Source: Candidatus Kaiserbacteria bacterium CG10_big_fil_rev_8_21_14_0_10_47_16 (GTDB lineage: Bacteria; Patescibacteriota; Minisyncoccia; Phycocordibacterales; UBA918). From it: a stretch of 64,000 nt of DNA. A program made the position numbers and the translations under genes. The stretch lies in assembly GCA_002773395.1 (NCBI GenBank), contig PFBI01000004.1, forward strand, positions 12,615 to 76,614. Direction: 5' to 3'. Below are positions 4,057-51,208 of the stretch, one piece after another. The stretch's first letter is position 1, and every line of letters begins with the position of its first letter. The notes beneath the pieces were generated by a model. The model was given only the letters and a program-made list of their open reading frames with translations, did no database searches and was not told where the DNA came from.

Positions 4057-4641
4057 ATGATATATAAAACGACACAACGTATGTTCTCTACACACACAAA
4101 AATGCTCGAAAAGAAAAAAGGGTTTACACTCATCGAACTCCTTGTGGTGATTGCGATTATTGGGATCTTAGCATCGGTTGCGCTTGCGTCACTCAGTCGG
4201 GCTCGTGAGAATTCGCGCAATGCTGCGCGTGTCTCACAGCTGCAAGAATATATTAAAGCGCTCAACCTTTCGTACTCGAATGTGGGCGCGTACCCAATGT
4301 GGGGGTCAGGATCGACAGGGTCTCTCATCTGTCTTGGTGACTACGGCGACGATCGTTGTTGGCAGACAAATTCAAACCCTGCAGGCTCTGCTGCAGAGCG
4401 TTCGGTGATAGCAGATGCACTTGTACCATCCTTCTTTGGGATGCTTCCTATGGGAGAAACAACGGTATTTGGAGGGGGATCAAGTCCAACCTATGAAGGA
4501 ATGACCTACCAACACCTCAATTACGGAAGAGGGTACCAGATTCAGTACTTTATGGAAGGAAACGGACAAAACTGTTTACTTACGAATACCACATCGTCTG
4601 ATGTTGGCGCTGATACACTTTGTGTATATACCTCATCCTAA
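4057..4641 (+). CDS. Type IV prepilin-like protein (N-terminal cleavage/methylation domain)
   Basis: Leader then G|FTLIELLVVIAIIGILAS, a class III signal peptide with Glu at +5. AGGTGA ribosome-binding site upstream of the ATG at 4057. Confidence 0.7.
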   Translation: MIYKTTQRMFSTHTKMLEKKKGFTLIELLVVIAIIGILASVALASLSRARENSRNAARVSQLQEYIKALNLSYSNVGAYPMWGSGSTGSLICLGDYGDDRCWQTNSNPAGSAAERSVIADALVPSFFGMLPMGETTVFGGGSSPTYEGMTYQHLNYGRGYQIQYFMEGNGQNCLLTNTTSSDVGADTLCVYTSS

Positions 4642-5396: not shown

Positions 5397-6293
5397 ATGC
5401 GATATCTCAACGACTCTGAAATTCAGAACCTAGAAATAAAAGCGAATAGTATTCGTGAGAGTATTATCGAAATGCTCATTGAAGCGGGAAGTGGTCACAC
5501 CGCGGGGCCACTTGGTATGGCGGATATTTTTACACTCCTTTACTTCGAGGTACTCAGGCATAATCCGAAGGATCCGCTATGGGTAGATCGAGATAGACTC
5601 GTTCTCTCAAACGGTCACATTTGTCCGGTGATGTACGCAGCAATGGCGCATGTAGGATATTTTCCTGTTGAAGAACTTCTTACGTTGCGAAAGTTTGGTT
5701 CACGACTGCAGGGACATCCTCATCGAGAACTGCTTCCGGGGCTTGAAACAAGTTCGGGCCCACTTGGGTCAGGTCTCTCGCAAGCCATCGGCATGGCACT
5801 CGCTGAGCGTATGGAGAATCCCTACTCTTCAAAATATTTTTATTGCATTGTCGGTGATGGGGAACTACAGGAAGGACAGATATGGGAAGCAGCGCTTCTT
5901 GCAGGAAAAGAACAACTCCACAATTTAATTGTGATTGTCGACCGCAACGGTATTCAAATTGATGGATACACGAAAGACGTCATGCCGATGGAACCATTGG
6001 TAGAAAAATTTGAATCTTTTAATTTTGATGTACAGGAGGTTGACGGTCACAATATTCGGAGCGTGAACGACGCTATCGGAAAGGCTCAGGCGGTATATGG
6101 CCAGCCGTCAGTTATTATTGCGCACACAATTCCTGCGAAAGGAGTTGATGTGTTTGAGCGAGATTTTAGATGGCACGGAAATCCTCCAGGGAAAGGGCCT
6201 GAAGATCGTGTTCCGAAAGACAAACAGGGAGAGGTTGCACTTCAGCGGCTTCACTCACTCGCAGGAGCTATTATTCCGTCTGATCGTTCGTAA
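5397..6293 (+). CDS. Transketolase, N-terminal (thiamine-diphosphate-binding) subunit of a split enzyme
   Basis: GSGHTAGPLG and GDGELQEG motifs. 298 aa, immediately followed by the C-terminal subunit. Confidence 0.88.
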   Translation: MRYLNDSEIQNLEIKANSIRESIIEMLIEAGSGHTAGPLGMADIFTLLYFEVLRHNPKDPLWVDRDRLVLSNGHICPVMYAAMAHVGYFPVEELLTLRKFGSRLQGHPHRELLPGLETSSGPLGSGLSQAIGMALAERMENPYSSKYFYCIVGDGELQEGQIWEAALLAGKEQLHNLIVIVDRNGIQIDGYTKDVMPMEPLVEKFESFNFDVQEVDGHNIRSVNDAIGKAQAVYGQPSVIIAHTIPAKGVDVFERDFRWHGNPPGKGPEDRVPKDKQGEVALQRLHSLAGAIIPSDRS

Positions 6294-6296
6294 TAT

Positions 6297-7283
6297 ATGA
6301 TGCCACAACACATTAATCCAAATATATTTAACGACACCGTTGAGCGAGTGCCAAACCGTAATGGTTTTGGTGAAGGGCTGAAAGCTGCAGGAGAGGTCGA
6401 GAAGAACGTTGTCGCACTCTGCTCCGACCTTACTGAGTCAACAAAGGTTTCAGATTTTGCGACTGCATTTCCTGAACGTTATTTTGAAATGGGTATTTGT
6501 GAACAATCGATGGCGTCAGTTGCATCGGGGATGGCTGCGATGGGGAAGATTCCATTCATTGCCTCGTACGCGATGTTTTCACCAGGAAGAAACTGGGAAC
6601 AGATTCGTACTACTATTGCCTACAACGGTGCGAATGTAAAAATAATCGGAGCGCACGCGGGTGTTTCTGTTGGTCCTGACGGTGCAACGCATCAAGCAAT
6701 TGAAGATATTGCACTGATGCGAACGATTCCTCGAATGGTTGTCATAGCTCCGTGCGATAGTAATGAAGCAAAGAAAGCGACGATGGCTGCCGCCACGTAT
6801 GATGGTCCGGTGTACATCCGTCTTGCACGTGAGAAGACACCTGTCGTCACGACGTCTGGGTCGCCGTTTACCATCGGTAAAGCAGAAATATATTTAGAGC
6901 GAAACAAAGACCATGCAAAGAAGATAGGTATTATTGCGAGCGGTACTATCCTGCACGGCGCTATGACCGCTGCACACGCATTAAACGAACAGGGAATTGG
7001 CGTCTCGGTTATGAATCTTGCGACTATTAAACCGCTTGATACAGAAGCAATCCTTGCGTTTGCAAAGGATCACGATGCGCTCGTAACTGTCGAAGAACAC
7101 CAAGTTGCAGGAGGTATGGGAAGTGCGGTCGCGGAGTATCTTTCGGAAGTATACCCAACGCGAGTCGTGCGACTCGGAGTACACGATCGGTTTGGTCAAT
7201 CGGGGACACCGGAAGAGCTCGTTGCTTACTATGGGATGGATGAAAAGGAGATTACCAAAACGGTACACGCTCTTGTGGATTGA
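6297..7283 (+). CDS. Transketolase, C-terminal (pyrimidine-binding) subunit of a split enzyme
   Basis: …FPERYFEMGICEQSMASVASGMA… plus a transketolase C-terminal domain. Confidence 0.88.
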   Translation: MMPQHINPNIFNDTVERVPNRNGFGEGLKAAGEVEKNVVALCSDLTESTKVSDFATAFPERYFEMGICEQSMASVASGMAAMGKIPFIASYAMFSPGRNWEQIRTTIAYNGANVKIIGAHAGVSVGPDGATHQAIEDIALMRTIPRMVVIAPCDSNEAKKATMAAATYDGPVYIRLAREKTPVVTTSGSPFTIGKAEIYLERNKDHAKKIGIIASGTILHGAMTAAHALNEQGIGVSVMNLATIKPLDTEAILAFAKDHDALVTVEEHQVAGGMGSAVAEYLSEVYPTRVVRLGVHDRFGQSGTPEELVAYYGMDEKEITKTVHALVD

Positions 7284-7327: not shown

Positions 7328-7855
7328 ATGTATACTATTTTAAAAGAAAGAAAACAGACAGGATTTACACTCATTGAACTTCTTGTGGTTATTGCCATTA
7401 TTGGGATCTTGGCATCGATTGCGCTTGCATCACTTAATACAGCGCGAGAAAAAGCACAGAACACAAACTATTTAAGCCAAATCGATGCCTACCAGAAGGT
7501 GTTTGAGCTGTATTATTCAGACAATGGATTTTACCCAAAGAGTGGCGTGAGTGCGACTGGTGCAGAATATTGTCTCGGTGAGGGGTATCCGAATGGTACG
7601 TGTTGGCATAATACCGGCACCGGACGGTCTGAAAATTCAACCTTTAACACAGCCTTGAAACAATACATTTCAGCGCTCCCTATTCCTGCCGTTATAAATC
7701 CCTCAGCTTCTCTACAAGGAGCAATCTATAAACACCTCAACTCCGGCGGCGGATATGATGTCCAGTATTTCCTTGCTGGGAATAATCAAAACTGTGGGAA
7801 GGGTACCTTCATTTCAAATATTTCAGGGAACACGCGGTGTCAGATTATAAAGTAG
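7328..7855 (+). CDS. Type IV prepilin-like protein (second copy). Start uncertain; the ORF is open from 7280
   Basis: …KQTG|FTLIELLVVIAIIGILASIALASL, a class III signal peptide. Confidence 0.65.
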   Translation: MYTILKERKQTGFTLIELLVVIAIIGILASIALASLNTAREKAQNTNYLSQIDAYQKVFELYYSDNGFYPKSGVSATGAEYCLGEGYPNGTCWHNTGTGRSENSTFNTALKQYISALPIPAVINPSASLQGAIYKHLNSGGGYDVQYFLAGNNQNCGKGTFISNISGNTRCQIIK

Positions 7856-19632: not shown

Positions 19633-19911
19633 CCCGTTAGAGATAACACATGTCATTTTATGTCTACGTACTCAAAAGCAAACAAGATAATCGATTTTAT
19701 ACTGGCTGTACTAATAACCTACGAAAACGTTTTAATCAGCACAACAAAGGGCAGGTTACTGCAACAAAAAAGAGATTGCCAGTTGAACTTATTTATTATG
19801 AAATGTGCCATAATCAAGAGGATGCATACGCTCGTGAAGAGTATTTAAAAACAGGTATGGGTAAGCGATATATTAAAAACAGATTAAAAGGTTTTCTATC
19901 TCTAACGGGCT
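19631..19911. repeat. Perfect 15-nt inverted repeat: agcccgttagagata at 19631-19645 and tatctctaacgggct at 19897-19911. It exactly brackets the GIY-YIG ORF
   Basis: Read directly. The left arm overlaps the pheS stop codon; the right arm encodes the C-terminus of the GIY-YIG protein. Confidence 0.8.
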
Positions 19912-19913
19912 GA
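19650..19913 (+). CDS. GIY-YIG nuclease superfamily protein (small stand-alone YhbQ/UPF0213-like)
   Basis: FYVYVLKS…DNRFYTGCTNNLRKRFNQHN is a GIY-YIG core. AT-rich compared with its flanks. Confidence 0.8.
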   Translation: MSFYVYVLKSKQDNRFYTGCTNNLRKRFNQHNKGQVTATKKRLPVELIYYEMCHNQEDAYAREEYLKTGMGKRYIKNRLKGFLSLTG

Positions 19914-33304: not shown

Positions 33305-34207
33305 ATGGCAAACCGACATCTTTCACGATCTATCGTCTTACAATCACTCTTTGAGTGGGATTTAAATAATATCGGGAAGAAGGACATGGACGAAGTACTC
33401 GACCGCAACGTTGCTGAGTTCGCACCCAACAATAGCGATACGCCATTTATGGGGAAGCTGCTCGACGGCATTCTCGCGAAACAAACTGAAATTGATCTCG
33501 TTATTGAAAAGGCTGCACCTGAGTGGCCAATTGATCGCATCTCTCCGGTCGATCGAAATATTCTGCGACTCGGTCTCTACGAGTTGCTCTTTGCTGACCG
33601 CAAGGAAGTACCGGCAAAAGTTGCTATCAATGAAGCGATTGAACTTGCGAAGCAGTTCGGTGGTGATAATTCGAGCAAGTTTGTAAACGGAGTACTTGGC
33701 GCGGTATACAAAGAAATAGGGGAACCGGGGAAGGATGAAACTTCAAAGCGAAAAAAGAAAGAAATTCCGTTTGACGAAATGCCAATCGAACGACTCGTTG
33801 GCGCGGTCGTGTACTCCATTAATGCAGAAGGAGATATGTATCTCGCGCTCGTGCATGATATCTTCGGGCACTGGACGCTCTCAAAGGGTGGTATTGAAGA
33901 AGGTGAAGATGTACAAAAAGGTGTACAGCGAAAAATAAAAGAAGAGATCGGACTTGATATCACGGTAGAATCTGAGCTTGGCAACAATGAATACGTAGCT
34001 TCACATCCTGAAAAAGGGAAGGTACGAAAGCAGGTACACTACTTCCTTGGGCAATCACCGTATTCAGAAATCAAACTTGAACAAAAGGGAGGTCTTGATG
34101 ATGCACAGTGGTTTAAGGTAGCAGATATCCTTGAACTTAATTTCTACGAAGACATTCTACCGATTGTGACGAAGGCAATCACCATGCTGGTCTCCAAAAG
34201 TCGCTAA
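33305..34207 (+). CDS. nusB: Transcription antitermination factor NusB fused to a C-terminal NUDIX hydrolase domain
   Basis: N-terminal ~150 aa NusB-like (…SRSIVLQSLFEWD…RISPVDRNILRLGLYELLF…). C-terminal half carries a canonical Nudix box GGIEEGEDVQKGVQRKIKEEIGL (Gx5Ex7REUxEExGU). Confidence 0.75.
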   Translation: MANRHLSRSIVLQSLFEWDLNNIGKKDMDEVLDRNVAEFAPNNSDTPFMGKLLDGILAKQTEIDLVIEKAAPEWPIDRISPVDRNILRLGLYELLFADRKEVPAKVAINEAIELAKQFGGDNSSKFVNGVLGAVYKEIGEPGKDETSKRKKKEIPFDEMPIERLVGAVVYSINAEGDMYLALVHDIFGHWTLSKGGIEEGEDVQKGVQRKIKEEIGLDITVESELGNNEYVASHPEKGKVRKQVHYFLGQSPYSEIKLEQKGGLDDAQWFKVADILELNFYEDILPIVTKAITMLVSKSR

Positions 34208-34997: not shown

Positions 34998-35543
34998 GTG
35001 CATATGTTTTTACGTCTGCGACCACGTGGCTTCACACTCGTTGAGCTCCTTGTAGTACTTGCAGTTATTGCAGTACTCAGTGGGGTGGTGATGGCGAGTG
35101 TCATTCAAGCGCGTCAATCAGCGCAAGATAAACAACGCGTTGCATCTCTCGAGCAACTCAGCCTCTCGCTCGAGGTCTATAAGCAGGCATATGGATCGTA
35201 TCCATTTTCATGTAATGGAACGGGAGTTATGGGAGGTCACGGATCAAACTTCGGCACCTGTACCTCAAACTATATCCAAGGGATGACCAGTATCATTACG
35301 CTTCCCGTAGACCCAAATACGACTGCAGACGGATACCGCTATATCTCAAACGGCACCAGCTACCGACTTGAGTCGTACAACGCACTCCAGAGTAAAACGC
35401 TTTCACCAACTGATGATTACCATGCATGCGCCGCATCGTGCAGTAGTGGCGTCTGTGCGACGTCAGGAGGGCAGTATACGAACGCAAAGACACAGAAGAC
35501 ACTCGCAATTTGGAAAGGCACCACCTATCAGTGTAGTCAATAA
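34998..35543 (+). CDS. Type IV prepilin-like protein (third copy)
   Basis: …RPRG|FTLVELLVVLAVIAVLSGV…. Confidence 0.65.
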   Translation: MHMFLRLRPRGFTLVELLVVLAVIAVLSGVVMASVIQARQSAQDKQRVASLEQLSLSLEVYKQAYGSYPFSCNGTGVMGGHGSNFGTCTSNYIQGMTSIITLPVDPNTTADGYRYISNGTSYRLESYNALQSKTLSPTDDYHACAASCSSGVCATSGGQYTNAKTQKTLAIWKGTTYQCSQ

Positions 35544-38335: not shown

Positions 38336-40264
38336 TTAACTGGATAGAAGCTCGAAATCGAGTTCTCGGTTTTGGATATCTGCCCTGGTGAGCTTGACGC
38401 GGATGCTGTCTCCGAGTGTATAAATCTTGCCGGTACGTTGGCCTTTGATGCGATACTTACTCGCCTGATGCTCAAAGAAATCAGTCTTGAGACTTGCGAG
38501 ACGGATCATACCTTCTGCCTTTGATTCCACATCTTCCACGTAAATACCCCAGTCGGTGACGCCGGTAATGGTTGCGTTAAACTCTTGTCCAACACGGTCT
38601 GCCATGTACTCGACTTGTTTGAATTTGATTGAGTCGCGTTCTGCGCGTACGGCAGTCATTTCGCGTTCTGAGGACTGGATAGAAAGCTTCTCGTACTTCG
38701 CGATCTCTTTGCCACTAATTGGTGAGTGATCGATGTTGCGACGGAGGAGTCGGTGCACCATAAGGTCAGGATACCGACGAATTGGTGACGTAAAGTGTGT
38801 GTAGTGTTTGAAGGCGAGACCGAAGTGACCGATGTTTTTGGTTGAGTACACTGCTTTTGCCATCGAACGAATGGTTGCCGTTTTAATAAGATTTTCTTCT
38901 GGTACACCGGTTACTTCTTTGAGCAGTTTATTGAGACTCTTTCCGCTCACAATACCTTTTTGAGTTTCGAGGTCGTATCCGAGTGCGCGGAGGAATATAG
39001 CAAGTTCTTCAATTTTGTCTGGATCAGGAAGATCGTGGATACGATAGACAAAAGCCGCATCGCGACCCTTCGCCTTTGCGAGCGCATAAATATGCTCGGA
39101 CACCTTTCGGTTGGCAAGAAGCATAAAATCTTCAATCATGAGCATTGTTTCGGTACGGACCTTTGTATATGCACGAATCGGTTTGCCTGTTTCATCAAGT
39201 TCGAACTTTACTTCTGGCTGCTCAAAGGCGATCGCACCGTTTGTATATCGCTTGCGACGAAGAATACGCCCAATACTCATAAGGGTATTGAGTTCATCAA
39301 GATGTACGCCCGCTTGCTTGTCGAGCACTTCCTGCGCGTCTTCGTAGCTGAAGCGCTTATCTGAATGGATGATGGTCTGGCCGTACCATTCTTGTTCAAT
39401 ATGGCCATCTGCAGTCATTTCAAAAACTGCAGAAAAGGCGAGCCGGTCTTCATTCGGACGAAGTGAACAGAGATCATTTGAAAGTACTTCTGGGAGCATC
39501 GGAATCACGCGATCCACAAGGTAAATTGAAGTACCACGTTCACGCGCTTCAACATCGATAACTTCGTTCTCACGAACATAGTGCGAGACATCGGCAATAT
39601 GGATACCGATTTGGAAGTTTCCGTTTGGAAGCGTATCAAACGAAATCGCATCGTCGAAGTCTTTTGCATCCGCAGGGTCGATGGTCATTGTGGTTGCGCT
39701 GCGCATGTCGCGACGCTTTGGATCTTGTTCTGCATCTTTAAAAATTTGGTCTTTCGTCTCGTAGAGTTTTTGGGCAGCTTCTTGCACTGGTTCAGGAAAG
39801 TTCTTTGAAAATCCGCCACCACGAATGATGGCCTGCATCTCAGTTTCGTGGTCTCCCGCCGGGCCGAGCACTTCAGTGATTTCTCCCGCAGGATCTTCCT
39901 CAGGACTTTTCCACGAAGTGACCTTCACGACGATTTTCATACCCTCATGAATGTCTGTTGCATTGGTGAGAAGGGGTCGTACGTGAATCCGCTTGTTGTC
40001 AGGAATGAGATGCCATCCATCTGCTTTCTTGAGAGCGAGCCCAATGAGCTCGTCGTGCTTTGGTTTGATCACGCGAGTGACCTTTGCCATGTGGCGGCCT
40101 TCACTGTTCTTTCCGAGGAGTTCAACCTCAACAAGATCGCCATCGAGCGCGAAGCCAAGGGCTTCGCGCTCGATCACTGCGTCCTCTTCTTCATCGGGAA
40201 GGGCAAAAAAACCCGTGCCTTTCCCACGGATCATAATGATGCCCTCGTGTGTAGTTGTAGCCAT
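38336..40264 (-). CDS. rnr: Ribonuclease R (RNB family 3'-5' exoribonuclease) with a C-terminal S1 domain
   Basis: Cold-shock-like N-terminus. RNB domain (…DFDDAISFD…). C-terminal S1 (…GVTDWGIYVED…). Start at MATTTHEG; the tracked ORF's extra 115 N-terminal residues are rejected. Confidence 0.85.
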   Translation of the reverse strand: MATTTHEGIIMIRGKGTGFFALPDEEEDAVIEREALGFALDGDLVEVELLGKNSEGRHMAKVTRVIKPKHDELIGLALKKADGWHLIPDNKRIHVRPLLTNATDIHEGMKIVVKVTSWKSPEEDPAGEITEVLGPAGDHETEMQAIIRGGGFSKNFPEPVQEAAQKLYETKDQIFKDAEQDPKRRDMRSATTMTIDPADAKDFDDAISFDTLPNGNFQIGIHIADVSHYVRENEVIDVEARERGTSIYLVDRVIPMLPEVLSNDLCSLRPNEDRLAFSAVFEMTADGHIEQEWYGQTIIHSDKRFSYEDAQEVLDKQAGVHLDELNTLMSIGRILRRKRYTNGAIAFEQPEVKFELDETGKPIRAYTKVRTETMLMIEDFMLLANRKVSEHIYALAKAKGRDAAFVYRIHDLPDPDKIEELAIFLRALGYDLETQKGIVSGKSLNKLLKEVTGVPEENLIKTATIRSMAKAVYSTKNIGHFGLAFKHYTHFTSPIRRYPDLMVHRLLRRNIDHSPISGKEIAKYEKLSIQSSEREMTAVRAERDSIKFKQVEYMADRVGQEFNATITGVTDWGIYVEDVESKAEGMIRLASLKTDFFEHQASKYRIKGQRTGKIYTLGDSIRVKLTRADIQNRELDFELLSS

Positions 40265-40328
40265 GGGCGGAGTATAACAGTCATGAGGCATATTGACCAT
40301 ATGGTTACAATCTGTTACAGTTTCGGCC

Positions 40329-40853
40329 ATGCTAAAAATGCGATTACAAAGAACAGGTCGGAAGAATGATGCGTCATTTCGTGTTGTGGTAACTGACTCA
40401 CGTCGCGGTCCAAAAAGCGGCAAACACGTAGATCTTCTTGGTTCATACAATCCAAAAATGAACAATGTACAGATCGACGGAGAAAAGGCTAAGTCTTGGA
40501 TCGCAAAGGGAGTACAGGTATCTGATACGGTACACAATCTTCTCGTAGGCCAAAAGGTTATTGAGGGGAAGAAGATTAACGTTCTCCCACGAAAATCTCC
40601 TGTTATCAACGAAGCAAAGGTGAAGGCAGAAGCAGAAGCTGCAGCTGCAAAGGAGGCGAAGGAAGCCGCTGAAAAAGCGGCAGCCGAAGCACCAGCTGAA
40701 GAAGCTGCACCTGAAGCTGATGTTCCTGCAGAAGCAGAGACAGAAGCTACACCAGAGGAAGCACCAGTAGAAGCAGAAGCTCCAGTAGAACCTGAAGCAG
40801 AAGCAGTTACTGAGGAAGCTCCTGCACCAGAGGCTGAAGAGCCAAAGGCGTAG
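40329..40853 (+). CDS. rpsP: 30S ribosomal protein S16 with an ~85-aa Ala/Glu/Pro-rich C-terminal extension
   Basis: MLKMRLQRTGRKNDASFRVVVTDSRR… then a low-complexity AEAP-type tail. Confidence 0.85.
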   Translation: MLKMRLQRTGRKNDASFRVVVTDSRRGPKSGKHVDLLGSYNPKMNNVQIDGEKAKSWIAKGVQVSDTVHNLLVGQKVIEGKKINVLPRKSPVINEAKVKAEAEAAAAKEAKEAAEKAAAEAPAEEAAPEADVPAEAETEATPEEAPVEAEAPVEPEAEAVTEEAPAPEAEEPKA

Positions 40854-40898
40854 GCAAAAACGAAATTATAAAACAGCGCGATTGTTACAATCGCGCTG

Positions 40899-40927
40899 TT
40901 GACGTTTATGGGTACCTCTCGTACTAT
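40899..40927 (+). promoter_or_regulatory. Candidate sigma70-like promoter: TTGACG, 17-nt spacer, TACTAT
   Basis: Hexamers read by eye, upstream of the KH gene. Confidence 0.3.
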
Positions 40928-40991
40928 TTAGAGAGCACGATACTGAAGTCAGCTATCTGCCGCTTAACAGTTAGTTCTAAACACACCTTGT

Positions 40992-41348
40992 ATGCAAGAA
41001 GATCAGCAATTTCTCGAAGCACTTGTAAAAGCACTCGTTGACCATCCAGAAAGTGTAAAGATCAATCGCACCGTTGATGAAATGGGTGTTCTCCTTACCC
41101 TCGACGTTCATGCGGAAGACATGGGAAAGATTATTGGTCGCAGTGGTAATACCGCAAAGGCGATCCGTACACTTCTCCGTGTTGTCGGTATGAAGCACGA
41201 TGCACGCGTAAATCTTAAGATCAATGAACCAGAAGGAGGGAAGGGCATGATGGGTACTATGGCAGGGAGTGACTCTACTGATATGGATGCGGAAGTGGCG
41301 CCACAGCCTAAGTCACTCGACGAGGCTATCGACGACTTGAAGATCTAA
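40992..41348 (+). CDS. KH-domain RNA-binding protein (YlqC/UPF0109-like)
   Basis: …GKIIGRSGNTAKAIRTLL… GxxG KH loop. Canonical position after rpsP. Confidence 0.75.
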   Translation: MQEDQQFLEALVKALVDHPESVKINRTVDEMGVLLTLDVHAEDMGKIIGRSGNTAKAIRTLLRVVGMKHDARVNLKINEPEGGKGMMGTMAGSDSTDMDAEVAPQPKSLDEAIDDLKI

Positions 41349-41483
41349 AACTGGAAAATTTCTTTGTCGCACATCAAAATTTTTTGTTCACCGTACGATT
41401 TGTACGACTCACAAAAAATTTCTCGTGCTTCGCGAACTTTCCTCAGTTTTTGACTTCAAGTGGGAAGATAAAAAAAGAAAAAA

Positions 41484-41510
41484 CCGCGGACTACCGTCCG
41501 CGGCGTTTTC
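41484..41510 (+). terminator. Hairpin plus short T-tract between the KH gene and the NADAR gene
   Basis: ccgcggac-tacc-gtccgcgg followed by cgTTTTc. Confidence 0.45.
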
Positions 41511-41526
41511 TGATACTATAAAAGCG

Positions 41527-41961
41527 ATGCTGCAATTGGAACCAATTAATTTTGCTGAGCATAGATTTCACTATCTTGCACCTTTCTCTGCACATGAGAT
41601 AGAGATCGATGGCGTGATATATAAAACGGCAGAGCATGCGTATCAAGCGCTTCGGGTGATTCCTGAAGCCCGTCATAGAATTATTGCGGCACGAAGTCCA
41701 CTAGATGCATGGCGAGAAGGGCAGAAGTGTAAGGAAAATAATGAAGTGCTTCTGGATTATGATAAAGATGCACTTATGGAACAAATCTTCCGCGCCAAGC
41801 TCAAGCAACATGATGATGTGAAGCAAGTACTCATAGAGTCCGGCGAAAGAGGTTTATTGAAGTTGCATGGGTCAGATTATTATTGGGGCACAGGTGCAGA
41901 TGGTTCTGGAAAAAACAGAATGGGTAAAATTTGGATGAAACTTAGAGAAGAAATTAAATAA
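41527..41961 (+). CDS. NADAR (YbiA/DUF1768) family protein
   Basis: …FHYLAPFSAHEIEIDGVIYKTAEHAYQALRV… matches the NADAR core (F..FSNF…DG..Y.T.EH.FQA). Start at MLQLEP; the ORF is open from 41425 across the hairpin. Confidence 0.6.
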   Translation: MLQLEPINFAEHRFHYLAPFSAHEIEIDGVIYKTAEHAYQALRVIPEARHRIIAARSPLDAWREGQKCKENNEVLLDYDKDALMEQIFRAKLKQHDDVKQVLIESGERGLLKLHGSDYYWGTGADGSGKNRMGKIWMKLREEIK

Positions 41962-41962
41962 T

Positions 41963-42634
41963 ATGAACTTTCACGTAATCACACTGTTTCCAGATATTTG
42001 CAAAGCGTACACAGACGCGGGTGTGTTAGGGCGTGCGCAGAAGACTGAGAAAGGGAAAGGAGCAAAAGTGCGTGGAAAGAAAATTGCTGTTGCGTATTAC
42101 AACCCGCGCGACTACACAAAAGACAAACACAATAAAGTAGACGAGCGTCCGTACGGCGGCGGTCCAGGCATGGTGATGCAAGCTGCACCAATTCTGAAAG
42201 CAGTCGAGAAAGCAGTTGGAAAAAAGAATCCGAAAGAAGTGAAGGTGCTTATTATGGCACCGCGCGGAAAAAAGTTTGATACCGCGATGGCAAAGAAGCT
42301 TGCGAAAAGCTACAAACACCTCGTACTCATCTCTGGTCGCTACGAAGGTATTGATGCGCGTGTAAAGAAGATTTTGAAAGCCGAAGAGATTTCGGTAGGA
42401 GACTATGTGCTCACAGGAGGCGAGCTCCCGGCACTTTCTATTATCGACTCTGTCGCGCGGCAAGTGGAAGGAGTGCTCGGTACCTACGAATCACTCGAGG
42501 AAAGTCGTATTTCAAGCGGAGAAATGTACACTCGTCCCGAAATCCTCGAATATAAGGGCAAGAAACACAAAGTCCCTAAAGTCCTCGTAGAAGGAAACCA
42601 TAAGGAAATAGAGAAATGGCGAAGTGGTAAATAG
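41963..42634 (+). CDS. trmD: tRNA (guanine37-N1)-methyltransferase
   Basis: MNFHVITLFPD…, SPOUT knot region …GGELPALSIIDSV…. Confidence 0.9.
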   Translation: MNFHVITLFPDICKAYTDAGVLGRAQKTEKGKGAKVRGKKIAVAYYNPRDYTKDKHNKVDERPYGGGPGMVMQAAPILKAVEKAVGKKNPKEVKVLIMAPRGKKFDTAMAKKLAKSYKHLVLISGRYEGIDARVKKILKAEEISVGDYVLTGGELPALSIIDSVARQVEGVLGTYESLEESRISSGEMYTRPEILEYKGKKHKVPKVLVEGNHKEIEKWRSGK

Positions 42635-42636
42635 TT

Positions 42637-43248
42637 ATGCATATTCAACCACATGATCATACTGGGGCAGCAACGGTAGCGTACGTGCTTAACTCTAAAT
42701 TTTCCAAGGAAGGCGTTGCAGCCATCTCAAAATTACATCAGGAGATATCAAAATATTTTGGAGAGCTCGCATGGTTGCTTCCATCGCAATCTTTGCACGT
42801 AACGCTTATGGATTGGATTGCGCCGTTTGTGCAATACGGTGAAGATCCTGACATACTTTTTAAAAAGCATGGTGAACGATATATCTCTGTTCTCGAAGAT
42901 ATCGTAAAGAAGGAGGGTCCGATATCTGTTCATTTTAACCAGATTAATATATCGCCGACCACTATATTTATTCAAGGCACTGATGATGGGGCATATCAGA
43001 GAATAAGAGAATCTTTTTTAATGAAAGCGGAGCTCCTCCCCGGTACTAAGCAGCCACCGAGCATTATTCATGCGTCCATCGCTCGATTTGTTGGTGTGGC
43101 AGATTTCCCTGAAGCTGAAGACTTTATTGCGACAGTCCCAGTCGATTTCGAAGAAAACATTGACGAGTTTCGCTTAGTACGAGAGACGATACTTCCTATG
43201 CAGGGATATGAAATACTCAGGACATTGCCACTACGTAGTAAAATTTGA
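42637..43248 (+). CDS. 2H phosphoesterase superfamily protein (LigT/ThpR-like RNA 2',3'-cyclic phosphodiesterase)
   Basis: Two H-x-[TS]-x motifs in the expected spacing: LHVTL and IHASIA. Confidence 0.6.
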   Translation: MHIQPHDHTGAATVAYVLNSKFSKEGVAAISKLHQEISKYFGELAWLLPSQSLHVTLMDWIAPFVQYGEDPDILFKKHGERYISVLEDIVKKEGPISVHFNQINISPTTIFIQGTDDGAYQRIRESFLMKAELLPGTKQPPSIIHASIARFVGVADFPEAEDFIATVPVDFEENIDEFRLVRETILPMQGYEILRTLPLRSKI

Positions 43249-43492
43249 CGGATTGGGGCTTATTTGGTACACTGCCGGCACGAAATTGGGGTCTTGGGAT
43301 GAGTTGCGGTTGAGGATTTATAAAATTTCGGCGTTCTTGGAAAATGAGTGGAGGCTCATTTTTTAACTTTTTTACTCACAATACGTGATGCAATTACAAG
43401 CCGATTAAGGTAGCGCAGTATTTTGTACGCATTTATAATGCGGAATTTTTTGTGTCTAGCTTTCTCACATTATTCACTAGTCGAATATCATA

Positions 43493-46400
43493 ATGGCAAA
43501 AGATACATCAAAGGGAACAGTGGCACCGACCGTTGGAATGCTTCCAAAGAAGTACTTCAAGAAATATCGACCACCACTCGTTGAGCTCCCGGATCTCATC
43601 CAGCCACAACGCGAATCATACAAGTGGTTTGTTGAGACTGCGCTTAAAGAAGTGTTTAAGGAATTTTCACCAATTTCAGACTACTCAGACAAAAAGTTTG
43701 AGCTCGTCTTTAAGAAGTACGAACTCGGGAAGGCAAAGTGCACCCCAGAGTTTGCAAAGGAAAATAAACTTACCTACGACGCACCACTCCGTGCGAGTGT
43801 TGTTCTTAAGAACAAGACGCTTGCCTCTGATAAGGAGCAGGAAATCTTTTTTGCCGATATTCCTGTCATGACTGATCACGGTACCTTCATCATCAACGGT
43901 GTTGAACGAGTTATTGTGCCGCAGCTCGCACGTTCGTACGGTATCTTCTTTACGACACAGGAACAGAAAGGACGCACATACTTTGGTGCGAAGATTATTC
44001 CCGCACGAGGTGCATGGGTAGAAATCGAATCTGAAGCCGATGGTGCGATCTATGTGAAGATTGACCGAAAGCGAAAGTTCCCCGTCACAGCACTCCTCCG
44101 CGTATTTGGTGTTGAGACTGAAAAGGAAATGCTTGCGCTCTTCAAGAAAATTCCTGGAGGTGAAGCATATCTCAAGACAACGCTTGAAAAAGACCCCGCA
44201 AAGACAACTGATGATGCGTTTATCGAAATCTACCGACGCCTCCGCGACGGTGATCTTGCGACAGTAGAAAATGCCCGTGAATTCATCGGGTCTATTTTCG
44301 CGTCTGCACGATACGATCTTTCAGAGATTGGACGCCATCACTTCAATGAACGATCAGGACGCCCAACAGACAAGAAGGCAACAGACGAGCGAACAGTATC
44401 ACTCGATGACCTCATCACGATTCTTGATCACATCATCGTGCACAACGCGACTCCAGGAGCAACGGCAGACGACATCGACCACCTCGGATTCCGCCGCGTA
44501 CGTTACTTTGGTGAAATGCTCCAACAGCGCGTTCGTGTGGGTCTTACTCGCATGAAGCGAAATATTCAGGACCGTATGTCTACGATTGAAGCAGAGACAT
44601 CACTTCCGATTCAACTCATCAACCCGCGTCCACTCCAGGCTGCGATTAAGGAATTCTTTACGACCAACCAGCTTTCACAGTTCATGCCACAGCAGAACAT
44701 TCTTGCTGAACTTGAAGGACTCCGAACACTCTCAGCGCTCGGTCCCGGTGGTCTTACACGAGAACGAGCAGGTTTTGAAGTACGTGACGTACACACAAGT
44801 CACTACGGACGCCTCTGCCCAATCCACACACCAGAAGGACCAAACATCGGTCTTATCCTTCGTCTTTCAATGTACTCACGGGTAAACCGATTCGGTATTA
44901 TCGAAACGCCGTACGCGAAGGTGGTGAAGGGAGTTGTTACTGGAGAAATCGTTTATCTTAACGCCCACGAAGAAGAAAAGTTTGCAATTGCACACGCAGC
45001 AACAAATGTTGACGACAGTGGCAAGATCATGCAAGACATTGTGGAAGCACGACGCGGTGGGGAACCACGTGCGATTGAAAAGAATGAAATTGATTTCATG
45101 GATGTTGCGACGAACCAAGCGTTCTCAGTCGCAACCTCAATGATTCCATTCCTTAACCACGACGATGCGAACCGTGCGCTCATGGGGTCAAACATGCAGA
45201 AGCAGGCGACACCATGTATCGTGCCAGAAGCACCACTTGTCGCAACAGGTATTGAAGAAATTGCAGCGCGAGACACTGGTCGCGTACTCTTTGCAAAGGA
45301 AGCAGGAGACGTTGTTGAAGCTGACGCAAAGCATGTTGTCGTAAAAGGAAAAGATGGAAAGAAGATCGAGTATCCACTCATCAGCTTCCAGCGAACCAAC
45401 GACTTCTCAGCCTTCTACCACCGTTGTGCGGTAACGGTAGGAGACAAACTCAAGCGAGGAGATCTTATTGCAGACACCTCATCAACTGATAACGGACAAA
45501 TGGCACTTGGGCAAAATGCACTCGTTGCCTTCATGAGTTGGAACGGAGCAAACTACGAAGACGCGATTATTATTTCAGAACGTCTCGTAAAGGATAGTAA
45601 GTTTGCAACGGTACACATGGACGAGCTTGAGGTGTCAGTACGTGATACAAAACTCGGCCCAGAAGTAACGACTCCAGACATTCCAAACGTATCAGAACAG
45701 AAACTCCGCAACCTTGATGAAAACGGAATCATCCGCATTGGTGCGGAAGTACGTACGGGAGATATTCTTGTCGGTAAAGTAACACCAAAAGGTGAAACAC
45801 AGCTTACGCCAGAAGAGCGCCTCCTCCGTTCTATCTTCGGAGAAAAGGCAAAGGATGTGAAAGACACATCACTCCGTCTTGAAGCAGGGAAGCGAGGTCG
45901 CGTTATTGGCGTGAAAATTTTCTCACGTGAAAATGGTGACCAACTCGAAAGCGGTGTTATCAAGCGAATCCACATTACCGTCGCGCAAGTTCGAAACGTT
46001 TCTGTGGGAGACAAGCTTGCGGGACGTCACGGTAACAAGGGAGTTATCTCACGTATTCTTCCTGAGGAAGATATGCCGTACACCGAAGACGGAAAGCCAA
46101 TTGATATTCTCCTTACACCGCTCGGAGTACCAAGTCGTATGAACCTCGGTCAGATTCTCGAGCTTCACCTTGGTATGGCTGCAAATACACTTGGCTACCA
46201 GGCAATCGTGCCACCGTTTGCAGGAGCAACAGAAGATGAAATCAAGGACGAGCTCGAAGCAGCAGGATTTGAACGTGACGGGAAGCTTTGGCTCCGTGAC
46301 GGTCGAACGGGCGAACAATTCGCACAGAAGACATCAGTCGGATACATGTACATCTTGAAACTCCACCACATGGTAGAGGACAAGATTCACATGCGTTCAA

Positions 46401-46720
46401 TTGGTCCGTACTCTCTTATTACCCAGCAGCCGCTCGGTGGTAAGGCGCAGGTTGGAGGTCAGCGATTTGGAGAAATGGAAGTGTGGGCACTTCTCGGATA
46501 CGGTGCTGCGTACACACTTCGTGAAATGCTCACGATTAAGTCTGACGATATCGTTGGTCGTAGTGCAGCATTTGACGCGATTGTGCGTGGTGAGCGTATT
46601 GCACACCCACATACGCCAGCAGCGTTCAACGTGCTTGTTAATCAGCTTCGTGGTCTTGCGCTTGATATCGATCTCAAGCGTGAGGATATGCCGCGCTTGC
46701 AGCGTCGAAGTCGCAATTAA
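43493..46720 (+). CDS. rpoB: DNA-directed RNA polymerase subunit beta
   Basis: 1075 aa with conserved Rpb2 blocks (…GRHGNKGV…, …GGQRFGEMEVWAL…). Confidence 0.95.
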   Translation: MAKDTSKGTVAPTVGMLPKKYFKKYRPPLVELPDLIQPQRESYKWFVETALKEVFKEFSPISDYSDKKFELVFKKYELGKAKCTPEFAKENKLTYDAPLRASVVLKNKTLASDKEQEIFFADIPVMTDHGTFIINGVERVIVPQLARSYGIFFTTQEQKGRTYFGAKIIPARGAWVEIESEADGAIYVKIDRKRKFPVTALLRVFGVETEKEMLALFKKIPGGEAYLKTTLEKDPAKTTDDAFIEIYRRLRDGDLATVENAREFIGSIFASARYDLSEIGRHHFNERSGRPTDKKATDERTVSLDDLITILDHIIVHNATPGATADDIDHLGFRRVRYFGEMLQQRVRVGLTRMKRNIQDRMSTIEAETSLPIQLINPRPLQAAIKEFFTTNQLSQFMPQQNILAELEGLRTLSALGPGGLTRERAGFEVRDVHTSHYGRLCPIHTPEGPNIGLILRLSMYSRVNRFGIIETPYAKVVKGVVTGEIVYLNAHEEEKFAIAHAATNVDDSGKIMQDIVEARRGGEPRAIEKNEIDFMDVATNQAFSVATSMIPFLNHDDANRALMGSNMQKQATPCIVPEAPLVATGIEEIAARDTGRVLFAKEAGDVVEADAKHVVVKGKDGKKIEYPLISFQRTNDFSAFYHRCAVTVGDKLKRGDLIADTSSTDNGQMALGQNALVAFMSWNGANYEDAIIISERLVKDSKFATVHMDELEVSVRDTKLGPEVTTPDIPNVSEQKLRNLDENGIIRIGAEVRTGDILVGKVTPKGETQLTPEERLLRSIFGEKAKDVKDTSLRLEAGKRGRVIGVKIFSRENGDQLESGVIKRIHITVAQVRNVSVGDKLAGRHGNKGVISRILPEEDMPYTEDGKPIDILLTPLGVPSRMNLGQILELHLGMAANTLGYQAIVPPFAGATEDEIKDELEAAGFERDGKLWLRDGRTGEQFAQKTSVGYMYILKLHHMVEDKIHMRSIGPYSLITQQPLGGKAQVGGQRFGEMEVWALLGYGAAYTLREMLTIKSDDIVGRSAAFDAIVRGERIAHPHTPAAFNVLVNQLRGLALDIDLKREDMPRLQRRSRN

Positions 46721-46746
46721 TAGCTTCAAGTAATCAATTCATCAAT

Positions 46747-50421
<3,675 letters not shown>

Positions 50422-50501: not shown

Positions 50502-50744
50502 ATGAAGGAACTCAAAGCAGGGCAGCGATACAGACACTTTCGTACACAAAATACGTATATTATTCTTGGTATCGGGCATCATACTGAGACGGTCGAAAAG
50601 TTGGTTATCTACCAAGGGGAATACGAAGACCCTAAGTTTGGTGTTCACCCAATTTGGGCTCGTCCGTACGAGATGTTTATTGAAGATGTAGAGGTTGAAG
50701 GGGAACCGGTAGAGCGATTTACACTCATTCAAGATATTGTATGA
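50502..50744 (+). CDS. DUF1653-family small protein
   Basis: …YRHFRTQNTYIILGIGHHTETVEKLVIYQ…WARPYEMFIEDVEV… resembles DUF1653 from memory. Confidence 0.55.
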   Translation: MKELKAGQRYRHFRTQNTYIILGIGHHTETVEKLVIYQGEYEDPKFGVHPIWARPYEMFIEDVEVEGEPVERFTLIQDIV

Positions 50745-51208
50745 GTAAAAAAGTAATGACCATTACTTTTTTGTATCAATCACCAAATATTTTACTTGGC
50801 ATGAAGAAGCGCGGATTTGGGGCAGGGAGGTGGAATGGGTTTGGCGGCAAGGTAGAGGAAGGAGAGTCAATTGAAGATACTGCACGAAGGGAAATATTTG
50901 AAGAAGCAGGAATACATGTTGGAACTCTAGATAAGAGAGGTATCCTCAATTTTACATTTGAACACAATGACGATCACATAGAGGCACACGTTTTTAATAC
51001 AAAAGATTTTGAAGGGGAAATAACAGAGAGTGAGGAAATGCGTCCACAGTGGTTTAAGGTTAGTGAAATTCCATTTACTGAGATGTGGAAGTCGGACACA
51101 ATCTGGCTACCGCTGTTCTTAGAGGGGAAACATTTCACCGGTAGCTTTCACTTCGATGAATCCCACACTGTTCTGATGCATGGGCTACAAGAGAATGCAC
51201 AATTATGA
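50741..51208 (+). CDS. NUDIX hydrolase (MutT-like)
   Basis: Nudix box GGKVEEGESIEDTARREIFEEAGI. Start overlaps the previous gene by 4 bp. Confidence 0.8.
   Translation: MSKKVMTITFLYQSPNILLGMKKRGFGAGRWNGFGGKVEEGESIEDTARREIFEEAGIHVGTLDKRGILNFTFEHNDDHIEAHVFNTKDFEGEITESEEMRPQWFKVSEIPFTEMWKSDTIWLPLFLEGKHFTGSFHFDESHTVLMHGLQENAQL

Follow-up and report, generated by a model that had tools for sequence, protein, structure and literature searches.

The tRNA methyltransferase gene trmD in the window studied here, a 64-kb stretch of a Candidatus Parcubacteria genome from the Candidate Phyla Radiation (CPR), is flanked by two small genes. The upstream gene encodes a NADAR-family protein and the downstream gene a 2H-superfamily phosphoesterase; the same locus is present on contigs of at least five samples. 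Comparison with related loci suggests that the cluster probably consists of housekeeping genes typical of the Parcubacteria lineage with two variable slots around trmD, each of which holds one accessory hydrolase gene in this genome, and that NADAR and 2H differ in their histories and in all likelihood function independently of each other. The original prediction had interpreted the pair as a dedicated two-enzyme module for ADP-ribose or RNA repair. This interpretation does not hold up, as the pair is found in none of 124 related loci and in none of the contexts of seven 2H homologues. At the level of gene neighborhoods, the combination is hence not conserved outside this genome, which is the outcome that the prediction itself had named as speaking against it.

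The 124 loci derive from two sets. A TrmD scan using one genome per species yielded 80 trmD-centered loci from Parcubacteria/Paceibacteria, while a NADAR-centered scan of metagenome contigs yielded 44 orthologous loci with 57–71% identity; the open reading frames (ORFs) in the related loci were compared with the window proteins. Among the 80 species-representative loci, the recurring order is RNase R on the minus strand, then rpsP, the KH-domain gene, slot 1, trmD, slot 2, and rpoB, and this order is the norm in the lineage. Slot 1 refers to the interval between KH and trmD and slot 2 to that between trmD and rpoB. RNase R has an equivalent position in most of the related loci, and rpoB is located 3′ of trmD. 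The window conforms to this layout. As predicted, NADAR is positioned between KH and trmD, the 2H gene follows trmD, and rpoB comes next, all on the plus strand.

The content of slot 1 varies. Among 51 loci with both KH and trmD, slot 1 is empty in 29, carries a gene with a NUDIX motif in nine and NADAR in two, and harbors other genes in the remaining 11. The Pfam matches in this slot are NUDIX, CYTH, HD_3/YfbR-like 5′-nucleotidase, Exo_endo_phos, and one HTH protein, together with a weak match to Nuc_deoxyrib_tr (nucleoside 2-deoxyribosyltransferase-like, Rcl-like). Judged by these family matches, the predicted slot 1 products are mostly small nucleotide hydrolases. The slot NUDIX proteins all score far under the equivalog cut-offs in NCBIfam, and the window contains no orthologue of them.

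Where NADAR is present, its association with trmD is tight. trmD is found downstream in 39 of the 44 NADAR-orthologue loci (tblastn), while in the other five the contig runs out within 1 kb; KH is located upstream in every orthologue locus with enough contig. In loci with both NADAR and NUDIX, the order is always NADAR, NUDIX, trmD. The NADAR–trmD linkage is strongly conserved, and only NADAR, not 2H, is consistently linked to trmD in relatives. In the window, a single nucleotide separates the NADAR stop codon from the trmD ATG. Of 15 non-redundant loci with NADAR and trmD side by side, 14 have a gap of -4 to +5 nt. Because the NADAR stop mostly falls no more than 5 nt from the start of trmD, the two genes appear to share a transcript and to be coupled in translation. 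An alignment of 25 NADAR sequences has 40 invariant columns. The NADAR gene is probably ancient and vertically inherited in this lineage.

The protein encoded in slot 1 was assigned to NADAR by the PF08719 search, in keeping with the prediction (75.9 bits; gathering score, 35.1), and its AlphaFold2 model (predicted local distance difference test, pLDDT, 92.9) adopts the YbiA fold. Only two structures match the model in Foldseek at E<=0.001: Escherichia coli YbiA (2b3w; template modeling score, TM, 0.81; 31% identity) and 8bau, a Phytophthora NADAR–ADP-ribose structure (TM 0.76). The protein resembles E. coli YbiA in its fold, in the PF08719 match, in the minimal "naked" domain of ~145 aa, and in the ribose Glu and pocket Asp/Trp. 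With TIGR02464, the YbiA equivalog domain (riboflavin-intermediate N-glycosidase), it scores marginally under the cut-off (71.2 versus 73.7 bits). It differs from YbiA in that its gene is found next to trmD and not with riboflavin genes, and in having K112 in place of the subfamily-defining Glu and R43 in place of the diphosphate Lys.

These two residues set the trmD-linked clade, which comprises at least 120 sequence clusters, apart from the characterized NADARs. Both K112 and R43 are present in all of the 120 homologues listed, where E36, D117, and W120 are likewise invariant. E36 (in TAEH) corresponds to the Glu responsible for placing the distal ribose (E43 in 8bau, E88 in the E. coli C7 NADAR), and D117 and W120 are equivalent to the Asp and Trp of the ADP-ribose pocket (D130 and W133); these positions are thus kept. 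R43 replaces the Lys adjacent to the diphosphate (K50 in 8bau, K95 in C7), which is a conservative change. K112 terminates the last short strand in the model and, in the alignments, takes the place of the YbiA Glu and of E125 in 8bau, the catalytic-signature position. The residue in this last strand defines the NADAR subfamilies, i.e., Glu in YbiA, Asp in DarT1-linked NADARs (BC4488), and His in phage NADARs, and mutating it abolishes guanine de-ADP-ribosylation (PMC11543638, PMC11125620, PMC12945103); in E. coli C7 this residue is D171, the equivalent of E125. More distant NADARs without linkage to trmD retain Glu at the K112 position, and the papers on NADARs that we consulted do not mention a Lys class. 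These data support the suggestion that the K112/R43 clade represents a new NADAR variant with altered chemistry or substrate. The protein would then still be an N-ribosyl (ADP-ribose or phosphoribosyl) hydrolase, with a substrate or mechanism that differs from those of the characterized subfamilies.

For the protein encoded in slot 2, the predicted 2H assignment stands on its motifs and fold. The PF13563 match is below threshold (22.8 bits against a gathering score of 27, E=1e-4), and PF02834 does not match the protein. The two motifs on which the prediction was based, LHVTL and IHASIA, are present at residues 53–57 and 144–149, respectively. H54, T56, and H145 are invariant in 18 homologues, H54 and H145 are invariant also in 59 sequences, and position 147 (Ser here) is either Ser or Thr across the family. 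The AlphaFold2 model is confident (pLDDT 95.3), and its top Foldseek matches are 1vdx, 1iuh, 5h7e (Deinococcus radiodurans cyclic phosphodiesterase), YjcG, and E. coli LigT (5ldm), with TM values of 0.63–0.75. A sequence-profile search of the Protein Data Bank with the 2H family gave no match at E<=10; the fold comparison alone placed the protein. The conserved motifs, the confident model, and the LigT/ThpR fold matches therefore secure the assignment, with the two HxT/S motifs placed in an internally duplicated fold as in the 2H superfamily. Like the LigT/ThpR 2′,3′-cyclic phosphodiesterases (1vdx, 1iuh, 5h7e, and 5ldm), which are also its best fold matches, the protein has two HxT/S motifs in a single domain of ~200 aa, and it is predicted to hydrolyze 2′,3′-cyclic phosphates. 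Unlike that set, with which it shares only 12–18% identity, it belongs to a small divergent subfamily, for which 388 representatives were found at E<=1e-3 in a set of 1.84 billion proteins. Its members carry the motifs LHxTLMDWxAP and TKxPPxIxHx[ST]I; of 59 members scanned, 50 match PF13563 and 21 match PF02834 at E<=0.01. The longer members have no informative domain fusions.

The position of the 2H gene is not shared with relatives. Its ATG lies 2 nt past the trmD stop (TAG-TT-ATG), as had been predicted, and it is followed by a 244-nt spacer to rpoB. No 2H gene adjoins trmD or NADAR in the neighborhoods of the 80 trmD-centered and 44 NADAR-orthologue loci. The seven 2H homologues mentioned above (37–49% identity) are found in unrelated contexts that include neither NADAR nor trmD. 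In relatives, slot 2 holds DUF4870, SAICAR_synt-like, FolD, DUF5667, or Lnb_N genes, or nothing. Without the 2H ORF, the trmD–rpoB spacer in the window would be 246 nt long compared with ~200–330 nt in insert-free relatives, and this arithmetic fits a clean single-gene insertion. The 2H gene hence looks like a recent single-gene insertion specific to this species.

Two observations on related loci concern the same subfamily and the same slot. In locus L007 (positions 6001–6621; also L008), a 2H homologue with 41% identity follows tuf–rpsJ at the place where rplC is expected, and a reverse transcriptase (RVT_1) gene comes after it; this is a second example of a member of this 2H subfamily interrupting a cluster of translation genes. 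The SAICAR-synthetase-like genes are located in the trmD–rpoB slot of two relatives (L015, 4760–5677; L098, 1787–2689), and FolD in that of L016. Genes for purine and one-carbon metabolism would not be expected in CPR genomes, from which de novo synthesis of nucleotides is believed to be missing.

The region between KH and NADAR provides information about how the slot 1 gene might be expressed. The NADAR ORF extends from either 41425 or 41527 to 41961. The coding sequence most likely starts with the ATG at 41527, which agrees with the starts of the homologues, so that 41349–41526 would be non-coding and hold both a GC-rich hairpin (41484–41503) and the sequence TGATACTAT (41511–41519), an extended -10-like motif. 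Database gene calls use the GTG at 41425 (178 aa). We consider this start less likely; its extra 34 residues are without counterpart in the homologues, and their codons would run through the conserved hairpin and the -10-like element. An Rfam scan of 40000–43700 at E<=1 gave two chance-level matches only, and no known RNA element in the KH–NADAR spacer.

Both elements recur in relatives. A hairpin followed by a T-run is present 3′ of KH in 42 of 51 related loci, with stem sequences that vary and pairing that is kept, and in many NADAR-orthologue loci it starts ~44–48 nt before the NADAR start. The motif TGnTAnnnT is positioned 6–9 nt 5′ of the start codon in most of 25 non-redundant NADAR-orthologue loci. 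In close relatives, it is found with a 6-nt gap 5′ of the first gene in the slot, whichever that is (NADAR, CYTH, NUDIX, HTH, or trmD), against a background rate of 0.038 per 330 nt. The complete arrangement of hairpin, TGnTAnnnT, 6–7 nt, and start codon can be seen in the window at 41484–41529 and in loci L013, L014, L015, L017, L019, L022, and L092–L134. The hairpin at 41484–41503 looks like an intrinsic terminator of the rpsP–KH unit, and TGATACTAT may be the promoter of a leaderless NADAR–trmD(–2H) transcript. The conserved combination of hairpin and motif thus suggests that the rpsP–KH unit ends at the terminator, and that a separate leaderless transcript covers the slot gene or genes, trmD and, in this species, 2H.

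In the model that we favor, the extended -10-like promoter just past the terminator of KH would direct transcription from the NADAR ATG itself or a neighboring position, and the transcript would be leaderless. A vertically inherited NADAR in slot 1 would be co-transcribed and translationally coupled with trmD. Constitutively expressed in this way, NADAR would most likely serve to clear away or salvage nucleotide or ADP-ribose-derived compounds, a role that we favor because slot 1 in relatives holds NUDIX, HD/YfbR-like, CYTH, EEP, and Rcl-like genes. In slot 2, a LigT/ThpR-type 2H gene would have been inserted as one unit right past the trmD stop in this species only. NADAR and 2H would accordingly represent two separate accessory hydrolases with independent action.

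Some observations weigh against this model. The GC content of both NADAR and 2H is 0.42 versus 0.47–0.49 for their neighbors, and GC at third codon positions is lower as well, but these values are within 1–1.5 standard deviations of other window genes and do not clearly indicate a recent transfer. The absence of 2H from relatives refers to neighborhoods, and the gene may sit elsewhere in their genomes. In this species, the 1-nt and 2-nt gaps between the three genes are compatible with co-expression, so that a functional link is conceivable. K112 could mean that catalysis has been lost rather than that specificity has been altered. Furthermore, the ORFs in the related loci were called simply by taking the longest ORF, and the scoring of NUDIX relied in part on its motif.

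For NADAR, the main rival is that it is of the immunity type, i.e., similar to an orphan antitoxin. In this scenario, the protein strips ADP-ribose added by exogenous toxins from guanine or cytosine in tRNA, rRNA, or DNA and is co-expressed with translation genes for their protection, and 2H is unrelated to it. Several NADAR subfamilies are known to remove ADP-ribosylation from guanosine in DNA and RNA (PMC11543638, PMC11833690, PMC12945103), and the strict linkage to trmD, which encodes a guanine-modifying tRNA enzyme, is consistent with such a role. Stand-alone NADARs in the rpsU–dnaG–rpoD operon of some E. coli strains provide a parallel: as here, NADAR is located in a conserved translation/transcription operon with no adjacent toxin gene, and a safeguarding role has been proposed for these proteins (PMC11125620). 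They are active on guanine-ADP-ribose (Cihlova et al. 2024, PMC11125620) and differ from the NADAR of the window in operon, phylum, and active-site signature. The toxin–antitoxin pairs DarT1–NADAR (DarTG1) and YarT–YbiA likewise contain a NADAR-superfamily hydrolase domain. Compared with these, the window gene has no ADP-ribosyltransferase gene nearby, and its product lacks the N-terminal DNA-binding extension and has Lys instead of Asp. Lys occupies exactly the position (D171 in C7, E125 in 8bau) that is needed for guanine de-ADP-ribosylation. The PADLOC defense-system models match neither the NADAR nor the 2H protein, and against NF053876 (anti-phage, DS32) NADAR scores 52 bits with a cut-off of 240. 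A metabolic role also fits better with a slot that in sister species holds NUDIX, HD, or CYTH, or is empty. We therefore regard immunity as rather unlikely. It is also conceivable, and in our opinion unlikely, that the K-type clade constitutes a fourth catalytic NADAR class with a substrate tied to TrmD chemistry, the slot being a dedicated promoter-proximal leaderless site for interchangeable enzymes that clean up nucleotide or RNA adducts. The enzyme might then remove an N-ribosyl or ADP-ribosyl adduct from the tRNA guanine ahead of m1G37 formation, or hydrolyze a nucleoside that arises as a by-product when the methyl group is transferred.

Two further readings seem to us less probable. NADAR and 2H might after all cooperate in repair: 2H would open 2′,3′-cyclic or ADP-ribose 1′′-2′′ cyclic phosphates, as in KptA/Tpt1-type RNA repair, NADAR would take the ADP-ribose products, and the wiring to trmD would service tRNA. 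The co-directional arrangement of NADAR, trmD, and 2H with gaps of 1–2 nt would fit such a module, RNA-repair networks that join NADAR, 2H, Nudix, and KptA have been described from comparative genomics (PMC9503650), and NUDIX often adjoins NADAR in relatives. Nevertheless, a cooperative module is very unlikely considering that the pair is missing from the related loci, that NADAR and trmD are missing near the 2H homologues, and that slot 2 in relatives holds unrelated genes. The other components were not found in the window either; the Pfam annotation of the 64-kb window contains no KptA/Tpt1, RtcB, or other RNA ligase, no macrodomain, and no ADP-ribosyltransferase, DarT-like or other, of the kind that had been considered as a partner. 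The remaining reading is that the K-type NADAR has lost catalysis and is a non-enzymatic partner, perhaps a TrmD accessory that binds ADP-ribose, nucleotides, or RNA. The replacement of the catalytic acid or His by Lys throughout the listed homologues is in line with this reading, and the very tight stop–start spacing with trmD and the many invariant columns agree with it. E36, D117, W120, and R43 are, however, invariant as for a working ligand site. Moreover, many close relatives keep trmD without NADAR, which argues that TrmD does not need it, and we consider a purely binding role highly improbable. Two separate accessory hydrolases, each with its own history, is thus the reading that we prefer.

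The physiological roles of NADARs outside toxin–antitoxin systems are an acknowledged open question (PMC11125620). In this context, a large clade that is fixed next to trmD and has a different subfamily-defining residue is well suited for testing what determines the chemistry of NADARs and their choice of substrate. The apparent two-enzyme module would, if our preferred reading is right, be a coincidence of two variable slots, which calls for caution in reading function from adjacency in compact CPR genomes. The terminator, -10, and leaderless layout, together with the recurrent nucleotide hydrolases, may also tell us something about the expression of salvage and clean-up enzymes in reduced genomes.

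The features of the cluster and its borders are given in Table 1.

Table 1. Features in and around the trmD cluster, in window coordinates.
Feature	Coordinates	Strand	Basis and remarks
RNase R gene	38336..40264	-	Pfam RNB, OB_Dis3, CSD2, S1; divergent from rpsP; conserved left border
rpsP (ribosomal protein S16)	40335..40853	+	TIGR00002 76.2 bits; PF00886 53.7 bits
Terminator-like hairpin 3′ of rpsP	40872..40900	no strand	13-bp; hairpin scan
KH-domain gene (KhpA/YlqC-like)	40992..41348	+	PF13083 76.2 bits
GC-rich hairpin (CCGCGGAC-TACC-GTCCGCGG, then CGTTTTCT)	41484..41503	+	Hairpin scan
TGATACTAT, extended -10-like motif	41511..41519	+	7 nt 5′ of NADAR ATG
NADAR (YbiA-like N-ribosyl hydrolase, predicted), 144 aa	41527..41961	+	PF08719 75.9 bits
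trmD (tRNA m1G37 methyltransferase)	41963..42634	+	NF000648 226.5 bits (cut-off 220); TIGR00088 224.6 bits
2H phosphoesterase, LigT/ThpR-like fold	42637..43248	+	H54-x-T56 and H145-x-S147 motifs; fold match
rpoB–rpoC	43493..50421	+	rpoB 43493-46720, rpoC from 46747; conserved right border

In E. coli and Bacillus subtilis, the canonical operon order is rpsP–(KH)–rimM–trmD–rplS. The window cluster agrees with this operon in the order and strand of rpsP, KH, and trmD. It differs in the lack of rimM and rplS, in having rpoB–rpoC after trmD, and in the terminator-like hairpin that parts KH from the trmD unit, all three being typical of the lineage. That rimM and rplS are lacking at the locus had been noted before, and neither gene appears in the annotation of the whole 64-kb window. 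Nor was either seen in any of the 80 related loci, in which the neighbors of trmD are KH, slot genes, or rpoB; this refers to the genes found next to trmD and not to a direct search for rimM or rplS. RimM is reported to be missing from most CPR genomes and to be nearly absent from the group (PMC6744442, PMC12641178). The lack of the two genes is the norm in the lineage and RimM is rare in CPR; hence it is not peculiar to this locus.

Two proteins of the rpsP–KH unit carry C-terminal additions: S16 has an Ala/Glu/Pro-rich, low-complexity tail of ~80 aa (40610–40853), and the KH protein extends ~40 aa past the KhpA domain (41230–41348). NUDIX domains are found at two other places in the window. 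Directly 3′ of rpoC (50502–51208), a small DUF1653 gene is accompanied by a 155-aa NUDIX gene; the best NCBIfam matches of its product are MutT-like and all under cut-off, and it is not an orthologue of the slot NUDIX in relatives. At 33305–34207, a 300-aa protein combines a full NusB domain (TIGR01951, 132 bits) with a C-terminal NUDIX domain, a fusion that is a further tie of NUDIX to the transcription/translation machinery in this genome. Elsewhere, an 87-aa ORF with a GIY-YIG domain is positioned between pheS and pheT (~19650–19913), and three genes scattered among the housekeeping genes (4057–4641, 7328–7855, and 34998–35543) encode proteins whose N-terminal methylation motif (N_methyl) resembles that of type IV pilins.

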